A stretch of 64,000 bases of DNA from an uncultured Thermodesulfobacteriota bacterium (GCA_964567185.1 CAZMKZ010000002.1:4466-68465), one strand, 5' to 3'; numbered from the stretch's first letter, positions 2,896 through 60,551 are shown. The notes: generated by a model from the sequence alone, not told the origin. Numbers and translations: made by a program.

Positions 2896-4575
2896 TCAAC
2901 TTAGCTCCCTCCATTCCCTTCTCTCAATGGTCATGGTTCCGTAGTCCTGCCACCCCTGCGGCAGGTTCGTAACTGGTGTGTAGGTAAAGTTGGCGCTGGT
3001 ATTGCCGTCTCCGCCTACGTCAAGCTCACCGGGCTCTTCCGCCTCATTGCCGACAAGAAGGGTACCGTTCATGTTGAAGGTGGCCATTGTATTTGCTCCA
3101 TGGTCGTGTTCGGCCTCCACCTCCATCTCTTCGGTGGCTATTACTACGGCGCCGTTGACGGCGGTGCCCACGTTCACGTTAATGTCGCTGTACTCGGCCT
3201 TTATTTTTACTTCCTGGGCCACTAGGGCAAGGCTGTTGGCGGGCTTGAAGTTCATGGTGCCGGCCCCGCCCACTATCTCAAACTCGCCGGCCGGCTGGGA
3301 GTTGTTGGCCGCAGTGCCCACAAGTATGCTGGCCGTTATGTCCACCGAGGCATTGGAATCCGCTGGGCCAAAGAATTTAAAGTCATCCTGCGGGTCTATG
3401 ATGTTGACAACGCTGCTCGTGTAACCCGCGCCCGTGGGGTTGGTGTAGCTGTTGAACTGGTTGGCGTTCATGAAGGGCTCATCATCCTTGAGCTCGTCGG
3501 TACTAAAGGAGTAGGAACCTGACGTGCCCGAGCATGAGCCGATTACACCGTTCCAGTTCGGGTCCGTGCACCAGTAGACCGTATGGTTATAGGTCCCGTG
3601 ATGGTCATGATGATGGTCGCCGTTACAGGTGGTGCATACGGCCTGCACCGTGGCCTGCACCGTATAACTCGTTCCCATGGTGGTTATGGCGTAGTTTATG
3701 GGCCACTGCGTGCAGTTGGACCCGCAATCCGATGTGCTTCCCACCGCGGGCGTCATCATGAAGACCTGCTGATCCGCGAAGTTGGCCTGATTCTGATAGA
3801 AGGCAAAGTCAAGGACCGGCGGCACTACCACGGCGGCCGCGTCGTCACAGGACTGGAATTTGCCGCTGTTGCAGTTCGGCGTGATTTTTTTGTTGGATTG
3901 GGCCAGGGCCGCGCCAAGGTCGAAGTTGCCCTGAAGGGCAATCTCATTGCCGCCGTACATCTTGCCCGTGAATTTGCCGGGGTTGGAGCCTACGCCTTCA
4001 CCCTCGATACTGCCGTTACTGAATGCGGCGTAATCAAAGGCCGTTATGGCGTTTCTTACGATAAGGCCCGCCTTCCGCGTAACACCGTTCACGCTTCCAG
4101 TTGCCTCTACAAGAACGTCATTGGGGCCAAGGGTGGTATACTTATCGGGACGCGTGGAGTTAACACCCCTCCCGTAAGACCCGTTGGCGTCATAGACCTG
4201 TATGGCATAGGAGCCGTTAACAGCGCCCATGGCTATGGTGCCCTGTGTCTGGGCGGCCCACTGTGCGGCGTCGTCGGCGAGATTGCCGTCCTTGTTAAGA
4301 TCAGGGGCCCAGTCCGGGTCGTTTCTTATGTAGTTAATGGCGTTGCTCATGCCTGCCTCTGCCGTATTAAGGGCCTGCATGGACCTTGTTACATTACCGG
4401 CCACCTTCACATCCGTTGTGGAGGTGGTGATAATGGCCGCGCCGATAACGGCCATTATGCCCATTATCATCAGGGTTATGGCAAGGACCACACCCCTCTC
4501 GTCGCCGAGAAACCCGGCTATGGATATGCCGGCCTTTCTTTTTTTATGCTCTCTAACAGTTCTCATCATTATCAC
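2896..4575 (-). CDS. pilX: Giant PilX-like T4P minor pilin, 559 aa, with a Cys-flanked His-rich cluster
   Basis: The N-terminus matches the PilX_N pattern (hydrophobic segment, then AGN and AEAG). The long Thr/Ser/Gly-rich C-terminal extension includes CTTCNGDHHHDHHGTYNHTVYWC. Confidence 0.65.
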   Translation of the reverse strand: MIMMRTVREHKKRKAGISIAGFLGDERGVVLAITLMIMGIMAVIGAAIITTSTTDVKVAGNVTRSMQALNTAEAGMSNAINYIRNDPDWAPDLNKDGNLADDAAQWAAQTQGTIAMGAVNGSYAIQVYDANGSYGRGVNSTRPDKYTTLGPNDVLVEATGSVNGVTRKAGLIVRNAITAFDYAAFSNGSIEGEGVGSNPGKFTGKMYGGNEIALQGNFDLGAALAQSNKKITPNCNSGKFQSCDDAAAVVVPPVLDFAFYQNQANFADQQVFMMTPAVGSTSDCGSNCTQWPINYAITTMGTSYTVQATVQAVCTTCNGDHHHDHHGTYNHTVYWCTDPNWNGVIGSCSGTSGSYSFSTDELKDDEPFMNANQFNSYTNPTGAGYTSSVVNIIDPQDDFKFFGPADSNASVDITASILVGTAANNSQPAGEFEIVGGAGTMNFKPANSLALVAQEVKIKAEYSDINVNVGTAVNGAVVIATEEMEVEAEHDHGANTMATFNMNGTLLVGNEAEEPGELDVGGDGNTSANFTYTPVTNLPQGWQDYGTMTIERREWRELS

Positions 4576-4620: not shown

Positions 4621-7600
4621 TCAGTTACAGCTCGTAGTTGACTGGGTGGTATTCTTATCAATGCCCGTAATACCGCAGTTTGCGTCCGTAAAGGCGCTCC
4701 TTGAAGCCGTGAGGCTCACGTTGATGGTCTTGTCATGATAGAGCTGGCCGGCGGCATATGTATATGTGCCGGGGTTCTGGCTGTCCTCCACCATTGTGCC
4801 GGTCTCCACCGTAGCGGCAGGCAGGCCCGTTATCACCGCCGATATCTTGGCCCCTGAGACAGGTAGCGAGTTTTCATCGGTAAGCACCACGGTGAGGCTC
4901 ACATTCTGGCCGCCGCTTCCGGTCCTGTCAACGGTCATGGCCTCCTTGAACCTCGAGTCCTGGTCATATGTATAGATACCCACGGAGGGCTCGGGCTGGA
5001 TATCATAATTGGCGTTGCTGTCCGTCATCATTACGTAATACCAGACCCTCTTGCCCGTGAGGGTTGGGATATGACTTGATGTGCAGGCCCCTGAAGAGGC
5101 CGTCTCATATGTATTTGTACTGCCCACCTGGCACATGGTAACGGCATTCCACCCTGAGGGAGTCGAGGAATAATCCGTAGCCGGAGCGGAAAAAGTAGTC
5201 TTATCCGTTGTGCTGTAGTAGAGCGTAGCCCCGGTTACAGCTATGCCGGTATCAGGGCTCACCGTGTCCTCAACGCTCACGTCATAGGATGTCCATGTGT
5301 AATTAGGGTCCTGGGTCCCCGTCTCCACGGTTACGTTCGCCGGGTTCACATTGGATATAGTGGGTGTTACGGGCCTGTCCTGCACGCTACCCGTTATGGT
5401 GGGTCCTACGGTCACGGGCACGGTAAAGGTGCTCGAATTGCAGGCCGCGCCGTCAAGGTCATTTGTATAGTTAAGGGTTACTATTATATTTTCGGAGCGC
5501 ATGTCCACGTAACCGGTCCCCGCGGAATCCCTGAAGTCGAGGGTGAACTCGTTGAGGCCCGTCGAGCCGTTAAGCCTCCTCAGCGAGGCCGTGGGCTCAA
5601 AGGTGGCAAAATCAACTACAAAGCCCGATGCCACGTCCGTATTGTTCCAGAGCGTATTGGCGCTGCCGCCAAAGGGTTTTAATACTACCTTGTGGAGCTT
5701 TGCCGTAGCATTGGCCCAGACAAAGGTAGCCGAGTTTATGGTAACAGAGCTATTTCCCGTGTTCTGTATCCCAATGGTTACCACGTTGTGCTGACCGCCG
5801 TTCAGCGGCGGGCTCACCGTGCCCGAAGTTACTACGGTGATAGCGGGATCCCAGGTTATGTTTGTGGGCATGACCGTCACCTCGGGGGAACTTGCGACGC
5901 TCTCATTAAGGGCGCAGTCAAGGGCCTTCACCGTGTAATAATAGGTGGTGCCCGCCGTTACCGTACTGTCGGCGTAACTCGTTGCCGTTACAGGCATGGA
6001 GTTGATCTTGGTATAAGGGCCGCCCGAAGTTGTGGCCCTGTACACATAGTACCCCACCACGTCGTTCTCCGAGGCTGGATTGAAGAGGTTTCCGTTCTCA
6101 CTGCCCGCAGAGGCCGTCCAGTTAACCGTGGACGTTGAGCACGTGGCCGTGGTAAGACTCGCCGGCGCCGATGGCGGCCCATAGTGCTTGGAGCCGGGCG
6201 AGCCGTCGCCGCAGGGGGCGGCCGTGGCCAGAGACGTGGCCCCTGCGCTGAAGTTTCCGCACCTGTCGTAGGCAAAGGCCCTGTAGTAATAGGTAGTGCC
6301 GAGGTATATCCCGTACGTATCTATAAGGGGATAGGTCTGCGCGGGAACAAGGGGCTCATAGTCCTTTACGTTGTTTGGTCCCACGGCGCCGGAGTCCTGC
6401 GCGCTCACGGGATACTGGTCCGTTCTTCGCAGTATCCTCACACCCTTGAGATCCGTGTCCGTGGGCGTTGCGTCGCTCATATATATCTTGTCCGAGGCCG
6501 GAACCGCAAGAAAGGGCGTGGGGTCGGCAGGCGGCACGGTCTCAAAGGGGCTCGTATTTGTCAGGCCGCTTGTGGGCGTGTCCGTGCCGCTCTTGGAACC
6601 ATCACCATAAACACCGCTCTGCATTGACAAGTTCTTTTCATTACCGGCGCAATCCCAGGAAAGAACCCTGTATATGAAGGGATAGGAAGGACAATTCGTT
6701 ACGGTAATATCGGCGTAGGTCAGGTGAGTGGAATCCAGCTCCGCCACCTGCGCGTATGTATCCCCGCCGTCATCGCTCCTGTAGACATGGTAGCCGCCCG
6801 TGTCTACGGAGACGCTGGGGTCCCAGGTCAGGGTCACAAGGCCGTCGCCGGCCGTGGCGTCAGTATTCGTCGGCAAATCAGGGCTCGTAACGTCATTTGG
6901 CTTTGTGTCCGCGGTTCCGCCCGTACCCGATATGGGCGTGGTAAAGGAGGTGTTCACATTGCCCGATGTGTCGTAACACTTCATGGCTATGTCATATTGA
7001 GTGCCGTTGGTAAGGCCCGTAAGGGTATAGGACTCCGTGGACCCGCCCGGAATATCTATAAGGCCCGTATAAAAACCCGCTCCAGTCGGCTTGTAATACA
7101 CCTTGTACCCCGCGGCGTCGGAGCTTGAGCTCTTTGTCCACGCCAGGTTAAGCCTGCCGCAGAGACCCGGGTCTGTTGACTGAATATTGGTGGGAAGGGC
7201 GCACTCCGTAACGTCCGTGGATTGCTGTATCCCCATGCACCTTAGCGAAACACTTGTTTCGAGGTTTACGGTATCTATCTTGTTGGTAGCTGGGTTGGGG
7301 TACTCCGTGGAGGCCGTAAGGGCTATGCCCACCCTGCGTATCCTGTCCCTGTTGGCCTGCGACTGTATGGGGGCCGGGATAAGCGCGCCCGTTTCGTCGT
7401 AATAGGTAAACTGAAGCCCCGTGATGTTGCCAGCAAGGTCAACGCCTGTGCCGTAGGCCCCGTAGCTGCTGCCGCTCCATACGGCGGAACTCCTCATTAA
7501 CTCTTTTGCCGCCGCGTCAAGCTCGTACTTTATCTTCCATGGTCCCAGATTGGGGTCAGGGTCCGAGTCGGACTCGAACTCAAGGACAGTGGAGTCGGCT

Positions 7601-7839
7601 GTGTTAATGGGCGTGTCCTTGTAATAACACCCGGCGGCACGCACCTCTTTGACCACCTTCTCCATGGTTATCCTGGTCTCCTGCTGTATCTCAAGGAGCC
7701 TGTCCTGACCCGTGGAGGCTCGCAAAAAATAATTATAAAGCGAGTAAACCGCCCCTATGACGGCCACGCCTATGGCCATGGCCACGAGAAGCTCTACAAG
7801 GGTGAAGCCTTTATCTCTTTTTAAAAGACGTATGTTCAT
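4621..7839 (-). CDS. pilW: Giant PilW-like T4P minor pilin, 1072 aa, with FN3-like repeats
   Basis: The N-terminus KGFTLVELLVAMAIGVAVIG is a prepilin cleavage/methylation motif followed by PilW-like sequence. Downstream are at least three FN3-like modules and many Cys pairs. Confidence 0.7.
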   Translation of the reverse strand: MNIRLLKRDKGFTLVELLVAMAIGVAVIGAVYSLYNYFLRASTGQDRLLEIQQETRITMEKVVKEVRAAGCYYKDTPINTADSTVLEFESDSDPDPNLGPWKIKYELDAAAKELMRSSAVWSGSSYGAYGTGVDLAGNITGLQFTYYDETGALIPAPIQSQANRDRIRRVGIALTASTEYPNPATNKIDTVNLETSVSLRCMGIQQSTDVTECALPTNIQSTDPGLCGRLNLAWTKSSSSDAAGYKVYYKPTGAGFYTGLIDIPGGSTESYTLTGLTNGTQYDIAMKCYDTSGNVNTSFTTPISGTGGTADTKPNDVTSPDLPTNTDATAGDGLVTLTWDPSVSVDTGGYHVYRSDDGGDTYAQVAELDSTHLTYADITVTNCPSYPFIYRVLSWDCAGNEKNLSMQSGVYGDGSKSGTDTPTSGLTNTSPFETVPPADPTPFLAVPASDKIYMSDATPTDTDLKGVRILRRTDQYPVSAQDSGAVGPNNVKDYEPLVPAQTYPLIDTYGIYLGTTYYYRAFAYDRCGNFSAGATSLATAAPCGDGSPGSKHYGPPSAPASLTTATCSTSTVNWTASAGSENGNLFNPASENDVVGYYVYRATTSGGPYTKINSMPVTATSYADSTVTAGTTYYYTVKALDCALNESVASSPEVTVMPTNITWDPAITVVTSGTVSPPLNGGQHNVVTIGIQNTGNSSVTINSATFVWANATAKLHKVVLKPFGGSANTLWNNTDVASGFVVDFATFEPTASLRRLNGSTGLNEFTLDFRDSAGTGYVDMRSENIIVTLNYTNDLDGAACNSSTFTVPVTVGPTITGSVQDRPVTPTISNVNPANVTVETGTQDPNYTWTSYDVSVEDTVSPDTGIAVTGATLYYSTTDKTTFSAPATDYSSTPSGWNAVTMCQVGSTNTYETASSGACTSSHIPTLTGKRVWYYVMMTDSNANYDIQPEPSVGIYTYDQDSRFKEAMTVDRTGSGGQNVSLTVVLTDENSLPVSGAKISAVITGLPAATVETGTMVEDSQNPGTYTYAAGQLYHDKTINVSLTASRSAFTDANCGITGIDKNTTQSTTSCN

Positions 7840-7841
7840 CT

Positions 7842-8288
7842 CTATCTCGCTATGTAGGTCCTGAATATGGTATTGTGCGACCCTACGGCGTCATTCCATA
7901 CCACCTTTACGGCAATGTCCTTGGCGTTTACGGGAAGGGCGCTATTGGTTATATAGGTCTCTCTCCTGAAAGAGGCGTGCCCCGCGATAGTGCCGAAGTC
8001 CTCTACCTGGTCCGGATTCACGCCGGCCAGGGGGTCGCTTGCCGCCACGGAGTCTACCACGCTGTCAAAGTTCAGCGCCGCGGTGCGCTCTATGCTCTCT
8101 ATGGTCTCACGTGCGAGGTTGGCGGCCTCAGTGGCGCGCCGTCCGTAATCCGTACTCCTTATAGTGCTCGTCATAAGCCCTGAGAGCGTTATAAGGGCCA
8201 CGCTTAGGATTACTATGCTTATCATTACCTCTATGAGCGTAAAGCCTTCTTCTCCTGAAACAGCTTTTTCTTTCATTAGTTTCACCAT
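7842..8288 (-). CDS. pilV: Type IV pilus minor pilin PilV
   Basis: EEGFTLIEVMISIVILSVALITLSGL, a class III signal followed by the PilV-type hydrophobic segment. 148 aa. Confidence 0.75.
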   Translation of the reverse strand: MVKLMKEKAVSGEEGFTLIEVMISIVILSVALITLSGLMTSTIRSTDYGRRATEAANLARETIESIERTAALNFDSVVDSVAASDPLAGVNPDQVEDFGTIAGHASFRRETYITNSALPVNAKDIAVKVVWNDAVGSHNTIFRTYIAR

Positions 8289-8905
8289 GCCGTTAATATC
8301 TTCACGCGGCCGCTTGCCGATGATACGGTAACCTTGTACTTGTCCGCGCTGTTGGCAGAGCCGTTCAGCTTTATCTCGGCAAGGGTGGCCGAGCCAAAGG
8401 GGTCAAAGGCAATTACCGCCGTGGTTCCGGTAGTATATGTAACTCCCCCTACGGTGACGCTGAATATATTCACTCCAGCCTCAAGGTCTTTTGCCGCTAT
8501 CTGCGGGTCCGCTGTCCATGGGTCCGTATCAGCGGCCCTTGTTACTACAAGATACCTCTTCGGAGCGGCGTCAAGGTCAAAACGCACGCCATACTTCTGC
8601 GTTGAGTTCACCGCCTTGCTCCTTGCGTACTGGAGCATGGAAAAGATATCCCTTGATGTGCTCTTGAGTTTCATATGGGGAAAGGTGGACGTCAAGAATG
8701 TAGGCGCGGCTATGGCGATGAGGGTGCCGAATATGGCCAGGACCACGAGTATCTCAACGAGGCTGAAGCCTCTCTGTGCCTTTTTCCCCCACCGGCGCGC
8801 CCTTCCGGAGCACCTGAGGGACAAAATCCCCATGAGGCCGAAAGCCCCTTGCAGGGGCGCCGCCGGAATACCGGCCTGTCTTCTGTTATCAACTGAACTC
8901 TTCAT
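8282..8905 (-). CDS. FimT/GspH-like T4P minor pilin with an unusually long (about 45 aa) leader
   Basis: QRGFSLVEILVVLAIFGTLIAIA pilin motif. A strong SD (AAGGAG) sits 7 nt before the ATG at 8905. An alternative internal start at MGILSL cannot be excluded. Confidence 0.65.
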   Translation of the reverse strand: MKSSVDNRRQAGIPAAPLQGAFGLMGILSLRCSGRARRWGKKAQRGFSLVEILVVLAIFGTLIAIAAPTFLTSTFPHMKLKSTSRDIFSMLQYARSKAVNSTQKYGVRFDLDAAPKRYLVVTRAADTDPWTADPQIAAKDLEAGVNIFSVTVGGVTYTTGTTAVIAFDPFGSATLAEIKLNGSANSADKYKVTVSSASGRVKILTAW

Positions 8906-39680: not shown

Positions 39681-42188
39681 TTATCTTCTGAAGCCGTTTT
39701 CCATAAGACGCCACGACCTGTTGGGACGCTTCCCGGCAGGCGCCACAAAGGCCGTCAGATTGAAGTTAAAACTTGCCGAGTTCATGACACTGGGGTAGGG
39801 AGACCCGATGAAGGCGTTAAAGGTATAGGACCCTACCGGGGCTGTAAGGGGCACGGCCTGGGTAAGATGGGCCGACCTGGTGGCATTGGCGTTAAGACAC
39901 ACGTTCATGGGGCCGAAAAGAGCGCCGCCTGGAGGATAAGTCCCGCCGCCGGGAAGCGTAACTGTCTCCCAGAAGTCAACGCACTGCTTGGCGGCCGTGG
40001 TATTTACCGCCGTCACCGTATAGCCGAGGCTCCCGCCCTGGGCTACGGTGGTGGCGTCAGGGGTTATACTCAGTGTAACGGGAGACCCCGCGCCATCGCT
40101 TATCTTCGCAACAAAAACATCGTTAAGCCCGGCGTTAGTCCCCTGAATAGGGTTAACCACGGGGAAATTAGTGGAATCAGCCCCGCCCACCACATGGATG
40201 GCTCCGGAGCCGTCAATGGCTACGCCCCTTGCCGTGTCGTTACCGAACCCGCCAAGATAGGTGGAGTAGATAATGCTTGTGCCCGTGGAGTTAATCTTTG
40301 CTATAAAGGCGTCCCTTATGCCTCCGAAGGTCCCCTGTATGGGATTGACCATGGGAAAATTAAATGACCATGTGTGACCCGCCACGTAGACGTTATCGGC
40401 GCTGTCAATGGCTATGTCCCTGCCGCTGTCGCTGTCGACGCCGCCAAGATAGGTGGAGTAGATTATACGCCTGCCCGGAGGGGCGATCTTAACCACAAAG
40501 GCATCCTGTATGCCGGCAAAGGCCCCCTGTATGGGATTGACCATGGGAAAATTAGTAGAGGTGGTCCAGCCCGTAACGTAGATACTGCCGTTGCTGTTAA
40601 GGGCTATGCCCTTACTCTTTTCAGTGGCCGCGCCCCCGATGTATGTGGAAAAAACAAGGGAATTGCCAGCGGGGGTCAGCTTGAAGAGAACAACGTCTTT
40701 TACGCCTCCGAAGGTCCCCTGAAGGGGGGTTACAAGTGGAAAATTAGAAGACCAGCTATGGCCCGTAACATAGGCGGCCCCCGTGGCGTCAATGGCTATG
40801 GCGCGGCCGCCGTCAATGTTGGTTCCGCCAAGGTATGTTGAATATACAATGGCCGATCCGGCCGAATTTAACTTTGTTACAAAGGCGTCCTGAAGGCCCG
40901 CCATGGCACCCTGCACAGGGGTGCGCACGGGAAAATTAAAGGAAGAGGTCCATCCCGTAAGGTATACGGCGCCTGCGCCGTCAAGGGCTATGTCTTTACT
41001 TTTGTCGTCGCCCGACCCACCGAGGTACGTTGAAAAAACAAGGGCGTTGCCGGCGGGGCTCAATTTGGCCACAAAACCATCTTTCAGACCACCTCCAAAG
41101 GTCCCCTGAAGGGCCTTTGCCACGGGGAAGTTAAAGGACTCCGTATCACCGGTGATATAGGCGGCCCCTGTGGAGTCGACGGCGATAGCCAGGCTGTCCT
41201 CGTCATTGGTGCCGCCGAGGTATGTGGAATAAACAACAGCCGTACCGGCCGCATTTATTTTTGTTACAAAGGCGTCGCCCGTAAGGAGCCCGCCCCTGTT
41301 GATACCCTGCACAGGAGTGACTTTGGGGAAATTAGTGGACAAGGTCCATCCCGTTATATAGACCGCCCCGGAGCCGTCGACGGCTATGTCACGGCCAAAA
41401 TCAGCGGCGCTTCCGCCAAGGTAGGTGGAGTAGTTAAGCACCGGGTCTATTACAAGGTCTTTATCCTTCTCATAGGAGCCCACGACAAAGCCGTAGGAGG
41501 CCCTACCGTCACTGCCGCTCTCTATAACCCTGTAGCCGCCCTGCACCTCCACCCTTTTTCCATCTATCTCCTGATAGATAACGGGTTTCTCCTCTACGAT
41601 AACGCCGTTGTCAAGGGCTACCTCAAGGCTGCCGGCTTTTGTTATATTGATAGCCTTCACGCCTTCATAAGAAAACCTTACATCCGCCGGGTCGCCGCCG
41701 GACTTTACGATGATGTCGTGCTCTATCTTACGGTTATTCCCGTAGAATTTTACGTCGATATTCCTGTATACGTCCCTGTAGACCACGGCTCCGTAAACCG
41801 GCACGTCGCTTTGCCAGTTTTTGGCGTCTTTGCCCGTAAAGTAATTTACCCTGGTCTTCAGAAGCCCCTCGGCGCTCAGGTCCATGTCTTTTGCGGCGCC
41901 TGCGAAAGAGAGCCTGACTGCCTTTACCTTCTTGTCCTTAACAAGGGATAAGACAACGCCCTTATCCGTAAAAAAGGTTGCATGCCTTGCGCCTTTCTCG
42001 TAAAACCTTACGGACTTATCGGTCTGACCCTCGTTTCTGACAAAGTAGAGCGGGAGCCTGCCGTAAGATTCCATGACCGCGGCCTTTTGCATGGCCGTGG
42101 CCTTCGGGGCCTCTGCCGCGTAACCCGTTAAAGGGAGTAAGACAAAAAACTGTAAAAGCAGTAAGATGAACAACCTCATGACGCACAC
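39681..42188 (-). CDS. Large secreted protein with about 11 tandem SBBP beta-propeller repeats
   Basis: N-terminal signal peptide. Repeated about 48-aa units of the form STYLGG..D.a..IAvD..G.aYvTG.T.S.NFP. A C-terminal non-repeat domain. Confidence 0.8.
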   Translation of the reverse strand: MCVMRLFILLLLQFFVLLPLTGYAAEAPKATAMQKAAVMESYGRLPLYFVRNEGQTDKSVRFYEKGARHATFFTDKGVVLSLVKDKKVKAVRLSFAGAAKDMDLSAEGLLKTRVNYFTGKDAKNWQSDVPVYGAVVYRDVYRNIDVKFYGNNRKIEHDIIVKSGGDPADVRFSYEGVKAINITKAGSLEVALDNGVIVEEKPVIYQEIDGKRVEVQGGYRVIESGSDGRASYGFVVGSYEKDKDLVIDPVLNYSTYLGGSAADFGRDIAVDGSGAVYITGWTLSTNFPKVTPVQGINRGGLLTGDAFVTKINAAGTAVVYSTYLGGTNDEDSLAIAVDSTGAAYITGDTESFNFPVAKALQGTFGGGLKDGFVAKLSPAGNALVFSTYLGGSGDDKSKDIALDGAGAVYLTGWTSSFNFPVRTPVQGAMAGLQDAFVTKLNSAGSAIVYSTYLGGTNIDGGRAIAIDATGAAYVTGHSWSSNFPLVTPLQGTFGGVKDVVLFKLTPAGNSLVFSTYIGGAATEKSKGIALNSNGSIYVTGWTTSTNFPMVNPIQGAFAGIQDAFVVKIAPPGRRIIYSTYLGGVDSDSGRDIAIDSADNVYVAGHTWSFNFPMVNPIQGTFGGIRDAFIAKINSTGTSIIYSTYLGGFGNDTARGVAIDGSGAIHVVGGADSTNFPVVNPIQGTNAGLNDVFVAKISDGAGSPVTLSITPDATTVAQGGSLGYTVTAVNTTAAKQCVDFWETVTLPGGGTYPPGGALFGPMNVCLNANATRSAHLTQAVPLTAPVGSYTFNAFIGSPYPSVMNSASFNFNLTAFVAPAGKRPNRSWRLMENGFRR

Positions 42189-51696: not shown

Positions 51697-52497
51697 CTAT
51701 AACCCGGATGTGGTGATAACCCTGCCGTTAAGGGGCTGAACAGGCCTGTTATCGCCGTGCATTATCTCAGCGAATTCCTTGAGCTGATGACCTGAGAGAT
51801 GTACCTTATTCTTCATTACAAACCACTTTACCTCTTCGGTGCACGGAGGCGTGGTAAAAGAACCCGTGTAGTTGTAAAAAGACTTATTACGGGGCAGAAG
51901 GTCTTTTACGTTGACGGTGGCGCTGAGTTCCTTTTCCTCACCGGCCTCTTCGGGTAGATTCTTCCACATACCGGAGAATGCCTTGTTCTTTGCGCCCTTT
52001 TCTATGAGCACGCCCACAACGGCATAGCCGCCGTCTTTACTCTTATGGACAAGGTGCATCTCCATGGCAGAGTGCTTGCCGTTGACGGTGTGCTCGCTGG
52101 GGCCGTGAAAATGGAACTGCGCAAGGTCGTAACGCTTGCCGTTGACCTTTATGTAACTACCCTTGTCATAGACAACCTCGATGCTGTGCCCGTTATTTTC
52201 GATATTTATCTTCGTATCTCCGTAGTGCATCTCCAGCTTGTTCCGTGAGGTCCCGTGGGCGCCCTTTATGTCAATGGGAGACTGCATCTTGCCTTCTCCA
52301 CAGGCCTTGAACTTTTTACTCATCTCGCCCCAGTGCGCCGGGCCGTGCTCGCCCACGTAGCCCCAGTGCGCCTTATGCTTGGCGTGATGTCCCTCCTCGT
52401 GATGCTCTCCGGCAAAAGCCGGGACCGCCACAAGGGAGGCGACAAAGAACATCACGAGTAAAGCCGTCCAGTTAAAAAATCTCTTCTCGCCGTTCAT
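51697..52497 (-). CDS. Alpha-class carbonic anhydrase, secreted
   Basis: Signal peptide. Zinc His triad context (HFHGPSEHTVNGK...EMHLVH) and the SQSPIDI-like motif. Confidence 0.9.
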   Translation of the reverse strand: MNGEKRFFNWTALLVMFFVASLVAVPAFAGEHHEEGHHAKHKAHWGYVGEHGPAHWGEMSKKFKACGEGKMQSPIDIKGAHGTSRNKLEMHYGDTKINIENNGHSIEVVYDKGSYIKVNGKRYDLAQFHFHGPSEHTVNGKHSAMEMHLVHKSKDGGYAVVGVLIEKGAKNKAFSGMWKNLPEEAGEEKELSATVNVKDLLPRNKSFYNYTGSFTTPPCTEEVKWFVMKNKVHLSGHQLKEFAEIMHGDNRPVQPLNGRVITTSGL

Positions 52498-59525: not shown

Positions 59526-60551
59526 TTATTTATCGTGACAGGTTCTGCAGACTCCGCTACCGGTATTGCCGCCAACCCTTCTAAGGAAAAAGCCGTCAAC
59601 GCAATCCTCGCCGCTGCACCAGAACTGAAAAGAGGCTCCGTTCGAGTGATTGGCATACTGGTATGTGCTGTCCACCTCATCGTAGCTGAGGTTACGGAAG
59701 TGCGGGTCGTGGCATGAACTGCACTCCACCTTGTTGTTCCTCAAGAGAGAGCCTATGGTAGCCGTGCTTGAGATAAAGCCCGATACGGCCCAACGGTTCT
59801 GCGAGAGGTTGTTAACAAAAAAAGGCGTTGTATTAAGAAGGCCGGCAGAGAGGTCGATATTGCCTATTACTGTGCTCGTAGGCCTGAGGCTCGCCTTTGA
59901 TGAGGCCGAGTAAGGTATGGAAACGGGGTGGTCGTTTGAAAGGTCAACTCCAATATTGAGGCTCTGCACCGTATCTCCGGTGGCAAACGACGGACTTGCG
60001 CCATGGCATGTAAGACAACTGGTGGGGCTTGTAGGTGTATTAGTATTAAAATGGTCAAAATCAGTGCTTTGATAAGTAGTACCCGGCATGCTGAAGGACC
60101 AGTTCTGGTCTGCGCCTCCCGGCACAACGCCGCCCTTACCCGGGGCGTTTACAAGGCTATCGAAGGTAGTGACGCCGTCATGACAGCTCAGGCAGGCCAG
60201 TGTTGCCCCTCCGAGGTCGGCGCTATTAACGTTGGTTCCGGCTATGGTGGAACCATAGCCGATATAGCTTGATGAGTTGGCAGTAGACCTGTTCCAGAGA
60301 GGGGCTGCCGTTGTATTGGAATGATGGGGAGTATGACAAAAGATACATACCTGAGTAGTGGCGCCTGTCCTTAAAACCCTGCCGAATTTGCCAAGGTTGT
60401 GCCTTGACATCAGGATGCCATTGGCCACTACGCCATCCGGATAATCGGACACCGTGGTAGCCGCCGATGAGATACCCGGCCCTAAAAACACTACGGCCGT
60501 AAGCACCGCTATGGTTGTCAATAATAATCTTTTCATAATATTATCCCCCAC
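59526..60551 (-). CDS. Secreted pentahaem c-type cytochrome
   Basis: Signal peptide plus five CxxCH motifs (CIFCH, CLSCH, CLTCH, CSSCH, CRTCH). Confidence 0.85.
   Translation of the reverse strand: MGDNIMKRLLLTTIAVLTAVVFLGPGISSAATTVSDYPDGVVANGILMSRHNLGKFGRVLRTGATTQVCIFCHTPHHSNTTAAPLWNRSTANSSSYIGYGSTIAGTNVNSADLGGATLACLSCHDGVTTFDSLVNAPGKGGVVPGGADQNWSFSMPGTTYQSTDFDHFNTNTPTSPTSCLTCHGASPSFATGDTVQSLNIGVDLSNDHPVSIPYSASSKASLRPTSTVIGNIDLSAGLLNTTPFFVNNLSQNRWAVSGFISSTATIGSLLRNNKVECSSCHDPHFRNLSYDEVDSTYQYANHSNGASFQFWCSGEDCVDGFFLRRVGGNTGSGVCRTCHDK

Follow-up and report, generated by a model that had tools for sequence, protein, structure and literature searches.

A histidine-rich, lineage-specific loop in a PilX-like minor pilin of an uncultured Thermodesulfobacteriota bacterium

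The PilX-like gene and its histidine cluster

The 64,000-nucleotide stretch of DNA analysed here (from now on, the window) comes from an uncultured Thermodesulfobacteriota bacterium (GCA_964567185.1 CAZMKZ010000002.1:4466-68465) and carries on its minus strand, at 2896..4575, an open reading frame (ORF) for a PilX-like minor pilin. The ORF codes for 559 amino acids (aa) from a GTG; the copies in databases begin at the ATG at aa 4, and the true start is probably this ATG, at 4566. An earlier sequence-only reading had drawn attention to a polyhistidine cluster flanked by cysteines in this protein, CTTC-NGDHHHDHHGTYNH-TVYWC, and both the position of the motif (aa 314-336 of the ORF, 3568..3636 in the window; full stretch CTTCNGDHHHDHHGTYNHTVYWC) and the PilX-like label stand, the protein scoring above the cut-off of the Pfam domain PilX_N. 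We have found that the cluster is a lineage-specific and dispensable insertion at the tip of a hairpin, in the large head of a minor pilin of the kind placed at pilus tips. Its composition is constrained, and we propose, tentatively, that it binds divalent transition metals.

Three parts can be distinguished in this region, all on the minus strand. The CTTC (C314 and C317, 3625..3636) is a clade-specific cysteine pair at the base of the inserted loop, with the form CxxC or CxxxC in the orthologs. Next comes the His/Asp/Gly-rich insertion, NGDHHHDHHGT (aa 318-328, 3592..3624), modelled with low confidence by AlphaFold2 (AF2), and then YNHTVYWC (aa 329-336, 3568..3591), a return strand conserved family-wide in which W335 and C336 are invariant and H331 is present in at least 90% of the sequences (conservation is given throughout for 31 aligned family sequences, see below). 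Six of the nine histidines of the protein fall inside 11 residues (aa 321-331), a density that never appeared in an 11-residue window in 200,000 composition-preserving shuffles of the protein (the maximum was five, reached in five shuffles). This is the strongest His cluster of the window, the only other true one being the N-terminal tail of a secreted carbonic anhydrase. The identical protein was read on three contigs, from at least two metagenome samples of the Joint Genome Institute (JGI), and an assembly artefact is thereby ruled out.

The gene is the last of a set of minor-pilin genes on the minus strand that begins with a GspH/FimT-like gene (8282..8905) and continues with a PilV-like gene (7842..8288), both recognised by domain matches, and a PilW-like gene (4621..7839). 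The product of the latter is a giant of 1072 aa, unusually large for a PilW-like protein, in which a prepilin N-methylation motif and one or more FN3 domains are recognised, and its gene adjoins the PilX-like gene upstream in the homolog loci too. Downstream, on the same strand, are a small helix-turn-helix gene (2370-2567) and the genes of the assembly platform, pilM (1288-2358), pilN (752-1291) and pilO (135-734), the last followed on a longer contig by pilP, while pilD and a sigma54 two-component pair lie upstream of the minor-pilin set. This is the gene order of the type IVa core minor pilin set (FimU/T-PilV-PilW-PilX), and the homolog loci retain the same neighbours. No PilY1-like gene is present in the pilus cluster, so the head of the tip protein may itself be the adhesin; no competence genes were seen beside the cluster.

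Fold and family of the PilX-like protein

The PilX_N domain (PF14341; aa 27-76, 4348..4497, minus strand) was matched with 32.3 bits against a cut-off of 25.5, and most homologs show the same precomputed match. G28 is near-invariant (at least 90% of the sequences) and is the candidate residue after which the prepilin would be cleaved (between ERG and VVLAI), leaving a putative mature N terminus without Glu at +5. The equivalog profile for GspK of the type II secretion system (NCBIfam NF037980) gave 26.8 bits, well under its cut-off of 130, and covered profile positions 1-99 only. A classical PilX has about one third of the length of this protein.

Full-length members of the family are very few. 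Searching 5.8 billion clustered proteins yielded 31 sequences, and a second, word-indexed search with the alignment as query returned the same 31 proteins. In an exhaustive hidden Markov model search of 1.84 billion representatives there were some five full-length representatives at 50% identity, the rest matching the N-terminal pilin part only. All the named sources are metagenome-assembled genomes of Thermodesulfobacteriota/Deltaproteobacteria. Scans of metagenome contigs with protein patterns, and with a degenerate DNA pattern for NHTVYWC[ST]DPNWNG, found nothing.

The AF2 model built on the 31-sequence family alignment (mean predicted local distance difference test, pLDDT, of 81; predicted template modelling score, pTM, of 0.67) shows a long helix at the N terminus (aa 26-85), together with a sheet of the pilin type and a large head rich in beta strands. 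Among the structures in the PDB the sole significant Foldseek match was ComZ, 6QVI (E 8e-5, probability 0.99, TM-score 0.23-0.25), and no similarity at the sequence level to ComZ or to any other solved protein was detected. Taken together, the PilX_N match, the beta-rich head of the model and the fold match to ComZ support the assignment of the protein to the PilX/GspK class of minor pilins, with a large head rich in beta structure, the kind that is placed at pilus tips (PMC6561018, PMC7541494), as the sequence-only reading had supposed when it spoke of a pilus-tip protein.

Two other elements of this protein are widely conserved in the family. Between helices 26-85 and 100-110 lies an EF-hand-like loop, DLNKDGNLADD (aa 92-102, 4270..4302, minus strand), whose pattern D-x-[DN]-x-[DN]-G-x-x-x-D-D is found in most family members and which takes the form of a canonical 12-residue EF loop, DADNDGTITQAE, in three of them (P0005, P0009 and P0012); it is a candidate Ca2+ site, judged from its pattern, and is far better conserved than the His loop. 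At the C terminus, the stretch RREWREL (2899-2919, minus strand) shows little or no variation among the 31 family members, with low AF2 confidence, and may be a strand returning to the pilin domain or a contact with a partner pilin.

The hairpin and its cysteines

In the AF2 model the motif is carried by a beta-hairpin (aa 302-336, 3568..3672, minus strand), with strands at 302-314 and 329-336 joined by a 14-residue loop (315-328) in which the pLDDT drops below 50 at aa 320-323. As a control we have modelled P0008, an ortholog without the insertion. The same hairpin was obtained (313-326 and 330-338), closed by a three-residue turn and with a pLDDT of at least 90, which identifies the motif as an insertion at a hairpin tip that is otherwise tight.

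The arrangement of the cysteines is relevant here, given that the loop had been described as Cys-bracketed and disulfide-framed. As a description of the linear sequence the first term is accurate, but as a structural claim it fails together with the second. In both AF2 models the outgoing strand ends at the position of C314, at the tip, and the return strand ends at C336, 7-8 residues away from the tip. The cysteines of the family occur in pairs that are local in sequence, namely C235-C243 (3847..3873), C284-C288 (CGSNC, 3712..3726), C314-C317 and C336-C348 (CTDPNWNGVIGSC, 3532..3570), all on the minus strand. The four residues C235, C243, C336 and C348 are invariant, C284, C288 and H331 nearly so, and C336 and C348 are kept in the 21 of 31 sequences that lack C314 and C317. 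A C314-C336 disulfide was considered and rejected, the two residues lying at opposite ends of the hairpin by strand register (no distances were measured) and showing no co-variation. The likely pairs, on the evidence of the model and the alignment, are C314-C317 and C336-C348, and the loop is therefore not framed by a disulfide, C336 being too far from C314 by register to bond with it.

What the model leaves is a loop anchored on one side by CxxC (CxxxC in P0006 and P0007), either as a local disulfide staple or as the Cys2 half of a Cys2His2 site. For a short Cys-x(n)-Cys staple in this fold, CGSNC at the turn of another hairpin sets a precedent. The staple is favoured by a variant, described below, that keeps the CxxC behind a loop without His, and the second option is kept alive by the skeleton C-x2-3-C-x2-6-H-x1-2-H, shared by all nine His-type loops.

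Distribution and history of the insertion

Most family members have, in place of the insertion, a short turn without Cys (...QAVKxG-xxYNHTV(Y/S)WC). The insertion, of 8-18 residues, is limited to a single clade with about 75% identity to the query and was acquired together with the CxxC/CxxxC pair. Ten distinct sequences bear it (the window protein, P0002-P0007, P0009, L007 and L012); C314 and C317 are present in all ten and in no sequence without the insertion, always together. Nine of the ten loops are rich in His: NGDHHHDHHGT, SEHEHDHHGT, GGEHHHGHGT, SGHEHGHHGT, NGNEHDQHGT, GGHDHHHNNGT, TGHGHSGT, SGGDHHHHGHDHGT and GGDGGDHHHGHHGQNNT. The tenth (P0009/L011) has, behind the same CTTC, the Lys/Asp-rich GNDGKDKEKDKKKDKKGT (KDKEKDKKKDKK) and no loop His at all. 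That this variant could be a frameshift of a His tract was rejected, since a His tract read in its other two frames yields a stop or hydrophobic residues, and the codons of the Lys loop (AAG, AAA and GAC) are unrelated.

Three further sequences, P0008, P0010 and P0011, are nested within the insertion clade in a neighbour-joining tree computed with the loop columns excluded, and they lack both the insertion and the two Cys. One of them, P0010, shares its JGI sample with the window protein. In the simplest history the insertion was gained once, was lost or replaced at least two or three times and changed its loop chemistry once. It is a recent, exchangeable and optional add-on. There are also hints, from a modest signal in the nucleotide alignments, of recombinational swapping of the hairpin allele: near the loop, the identity of P0008 to its closest relative L007 falls from about 90% to 78%, while that of P0008 to P0010 rises to 87-88%. 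Conservation in orthologs had been named beforehand as the check on the His and Cys positions, and on this point the answer was negative, the His run and the CxxC being absent from about three quarters of the family and from three nested orthologs, and the His run replaced in one more.

Histidine content of the loop

His recurs among loops that differ in length and register. It makes up 36 of the 101 residues (36%) of the nine His-type loops, against 0.6% elsewhere in the same proteins, and the remainder is drawn only from G, T, D, N, E, S and Q. None of these loops contains Y, R, P or L, even though each is a single-nucleotide neighbour of the His codons. Orthologs differ in the use of CAT or CAC at aligned His positions, and the gene-wide divergence among clade members is considerable (synonymous divergence, dS, 0.5-1.4; ratio of nonsynonymous to synonymous divergence, dN/dS, 0.08-0.21). 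Since a neutral tract would have lost its His at such dS values, this pattern of substitutions indicates that the composition of the loop is under constraint, with His retained against drift. Slippage shapes the tract as well, as seen from the runs of identical codons (CAT CAT CAT, CAC CAC CAC) and from the variation in length. Only two segments of the protein vary more than the loop within the clade. Clusters of this kind (at least four His in 12 residues) were found in one of 149 other PilX_N representatives, so the cluster is not a generic property of PilX_N proteins. The sole exception was P0057, a distant PilX_N protein with YIHVHHEHEHENEY at aa ~260-275.

Possible roles of the loop

We favour, tentatively, a reading in which divalent transition metals are bound by a flexible, exposed His/Asp loop and the adhesion of the pilus tip is tuned by it. 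The insertion would sit at the tip of a hairpin in the ComZ-like, beta-rich head of a tip minor pilin of a type IVa pilus, flexible and exposed to solvent, with C314 and C317 acting as a small local disulfide staple or as the Cys2 part of a Cys2His2 site. The imidazoles of the His and the carboxylates of the Asp may bind Zn2+, Ni2+, Co2+, Cu or Fe2+, as happens in the His-rich loops of periplasmic zinc proteins, and the loop would in this way modulate adhesion to metal-bearing mineral surfaces or take part in metal-bridged contacts, with no part in pilus assembly. The His-rich loops of periplasmic proteins are disordered until zinc binds and contribute to zinc binding (PMC8561739; also the ZnuA papers). 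The segment described here is, similarly, an extracytoplasmic one dominated by His together with polar and acidic residues, and its pLDDT below 50 fits a disordered metal loop in the apo state. We also count in favour of metal binding that a second secreted protein with a His-rich segment, the carbonic anhydrase, is encoded in the same window. The proposal of a metal-binding loop made from the sequence alone thus remains plausible by analogy, given the D/H/G-rich composition and the low AF2 confidence, but not in the form of a conserved site.

Several of the observations presented above weigh against metal binding. The number of His per loop varies from 2 to 6, in variable register and length, which argues against one defined high-affinity site, and slippage has contributed to the tract. 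The Cys pair and the loop are missing from most relatives and from three nested orthologs, one of which shares a sample with the window protein. The ortholog with the Lys/Asp loop keeps the CxxC without His, and therefore neither His nor metal binding is needed for the core role of the protein. Free transition-metal ions are, moreover, scarce in sulfidic habitats.

The main competing explanation, which we consider rather doubtful, is a hypervariable surface loop of low complexity that lacks a specific ligand. Selection would keep it polar and disordered, its His would be incidental, and its diversification or swapping could serve, for instance, to evade phages or grazers by which the tip is recognised. 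The variability of the segment within the clade, the 8-18-residue length range with its identical-codon runs, the one Lys/Asp-rich replacement and the three losses, the coexistence of loop-bearing and loop-free alleles in one sample, the shifts of identity between P0008 and L007 or P0010 that suggest recombinational swapping, and a poly-Asp insertion in another loop of a distant homolog are all expected from such a loop. It accounts poorly, however, for the convergence of nine out of ten loops on His, which neutral drift at a dS of about 1 would erase, for substitutions that stay compatible with metals (D, E, N, Q, G) and never lead to Y, R, P or L, and for the strict co-inheritance of the CxxC with the insertion. 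A different use of the same residues, and an improbable one in our view, would be a purely structural Cys2His2 zinc clip, in which C314 and C317, in a zinc-knuckle-like arrangement, and two of the loop His would bind one Zn2+ and rigidify the elongated hairpin, with no role in ligand or surface binding. A CxxC or CxxxC followed by at least two His is found in 9 of the 10 insertion-bearing members and is located where the strand exits, and an anaerobic host could keep extracytoplasmic thiols reduced. The spacing is nevertheless variable, with an excess of His (up to six) over the two required; the Lys/Asp variant has the CxxC without loop His, the other Cys of the family form local pairs typical of disulfides (including CGSNC at a turn), and the orthologs with a short hairpin fold confidently without any loop.

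The likeness to ComZ could be taken as pointing to the binding of anionic polymers instead, DNA or exopolysaccharide being bound in a charge- or pH-dependent way by protonated His (or by Lys in the variant) on a ComZ-like tip receptor. The only structural relative, ComZ, does act as a DNA receptor (PMC6561018), and by our arithmetic protonation of the His would bring the His and Lys variants to a similar net positive charge. We give this explanation little credit, as the residues that contact DNA in ComZ (K98 and K233) lie between its two domains and not in the region of antiparallel strands, the loops also hold 2-5 acidic residues and the His loop is net negative at neutral pH, and no competence genes were seen as neighbours of the cluster. 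Finally, the sequence-only reading had raised a possible link of the motif to metal respiration or extracellular electron transfer, which would make the loop a redox element of a conductive or metal-respiring pilus, with a heme or metal relay at its tip. This is hardly credible. A pentaheme c-type cytochrome gene (59526-60551) is present in the window, the only hint of metal respiration in it, but it is unlinked, at a distance of 55 kb; most relatives do not have the loop; and heme attachment at the motif was rejected because CxxCH is absent from the query and from every ortholog, all of which have N, S, G or T behind the second Cys. We know of no electron-transfer mechanism that involves a disordered His loop on a minor pilin.

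Returning to the metal-binding loop, the Lys/Asp variant is not the only sign that the head accommodates charged low-complexity loops. A second variable acidic loop is AEHDHGANT (aa 488-496, with H490 and H492; 3088..3114, minus strand), and at this place the distant homolog P0033/L015 has an insertion of 72 aa with a poly-Asp run, DDEDDDEDDDDDKDKDDDDDK, and two flanking Cys. The Lys/Asp variant and this Cys-flanked insertion suggest charged low-complexity loops as exchangeable specificity elements of the head. In a more speculative version, which we regard as quite unlikely, interchangeable charged cassette loops anchored by Cys, whether His-rich, Lys/Asp-rich or, at the second site of the distant homolog, poly-Asp, would set the metal or mineral choice of a retractile pilus, a modular adhesin, possibly metal-harvesting, whose loops are exchanged by recombination among co-occurring populations.

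If metal binding were true, this would be the first case known to us of a type IV pilus tip pilin with a His-rich metal loop; full-text literature searches for histidine-rich or metal-binding minor pilins found none, and the combination appears to be undescribed in the literature searched, each of its ingredients being known. It would also provide a handle on how uncultured relatives of sulfate reducers attach to metal-bearing minerals, and the pattern of gain, loss and replacement would show tip specificity evolving by swaps of small loops. If the segment were only a variable surface loop the finding would be ordinary, and the firmer result would be the giant ComZ-like PilX with no PilY1 nearby.

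Comparison with known systems

ComZ, a competence-pilus pilin from Thermus thermophilus, resembles GspK and contains an inserted beta-solenoid; an exclusive placement at the tip has been argued for it on structural grounds (PMC6561018). Both proteins combine a GspK/PilX-like N-terminal pilin part with a very large beta-rich head, the two heads being of similar size, and at one of its ends the solenoid of ComZ likewise gives way to pairs of antiparallel strands (PMC6561018). The likeness, which makes membership of the ComZ-like tip pilins no more than possible, is at the fold level only, with a TM-score of just 0.23-0.25 and no detectable sequence similarity. A text search of the ComZ paper gave no His-rich or Cys-stapled loop (the terms 'disulfide' and 'metal' are absent, PMC6561018). 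ComZ, besides, binds DNA through its inter-domain lysines, and the gene described here belongs to a pilVWX-pilMNO cluster and not to a competence locus. With the PilX/GspK class that caps the priming complex the protein shares PilX_N, the last place in the order fimT-pilV-pilW-pilX and the lack of Glu at +5; it differs in its GspK equivalog score, far below the cut-off, and in having no PilY1 in the cluster.

The closest analogs of the loop itself are the His-rich loops of the ZnuA/PA4063/ZinT type, equally D/H/G/E-rich, extracytoplasmic, predicted to be disordered and of a length that varies between orthologs. There is no homology, though, and the host fold is another one; the loop of the minor pilin would be on a filament tip, not on a chaperone or solute-binding protein, and is coupled to a CxxC, and metal binding by it is a prediction. 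Modular pilins offer a further parallel. PilB of Streptococcus sanguinis is described as a pilin with a grafted vWA module and a metal-dependent site (bioRxiv 10.1101/2021.01.27.428410), that is, a pilin scaffold with an added module that gives a binding function, in pilins of this type sometimes metal-dependent. The addition found here is, by contrast, a short low-complexity loop with no folded metal-ion-dependent adhesion site domain.

Other features of the window

The secreted carbonic anhydrase mentioned above is of the alpha type (51697-52497, minus strand; Pfam Carb_anhydrase, E 1.6e-50), and its His-rich tail, AGEHHEEGHHAKHKAH, comes directly after the signal peptide. The cytochrome (59526-60551, minus strand) is a multiheme cytochrome c of 341 aa with five CxxCH and weak matches to c7 and MtrC/MtrF domains, unlinked to the pilus cluster. 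On the same strand, at 39681-42188, is encoded a secreted protein of 835 aa that combines DUF7948 with seven SBBP beta-propeller repeats.

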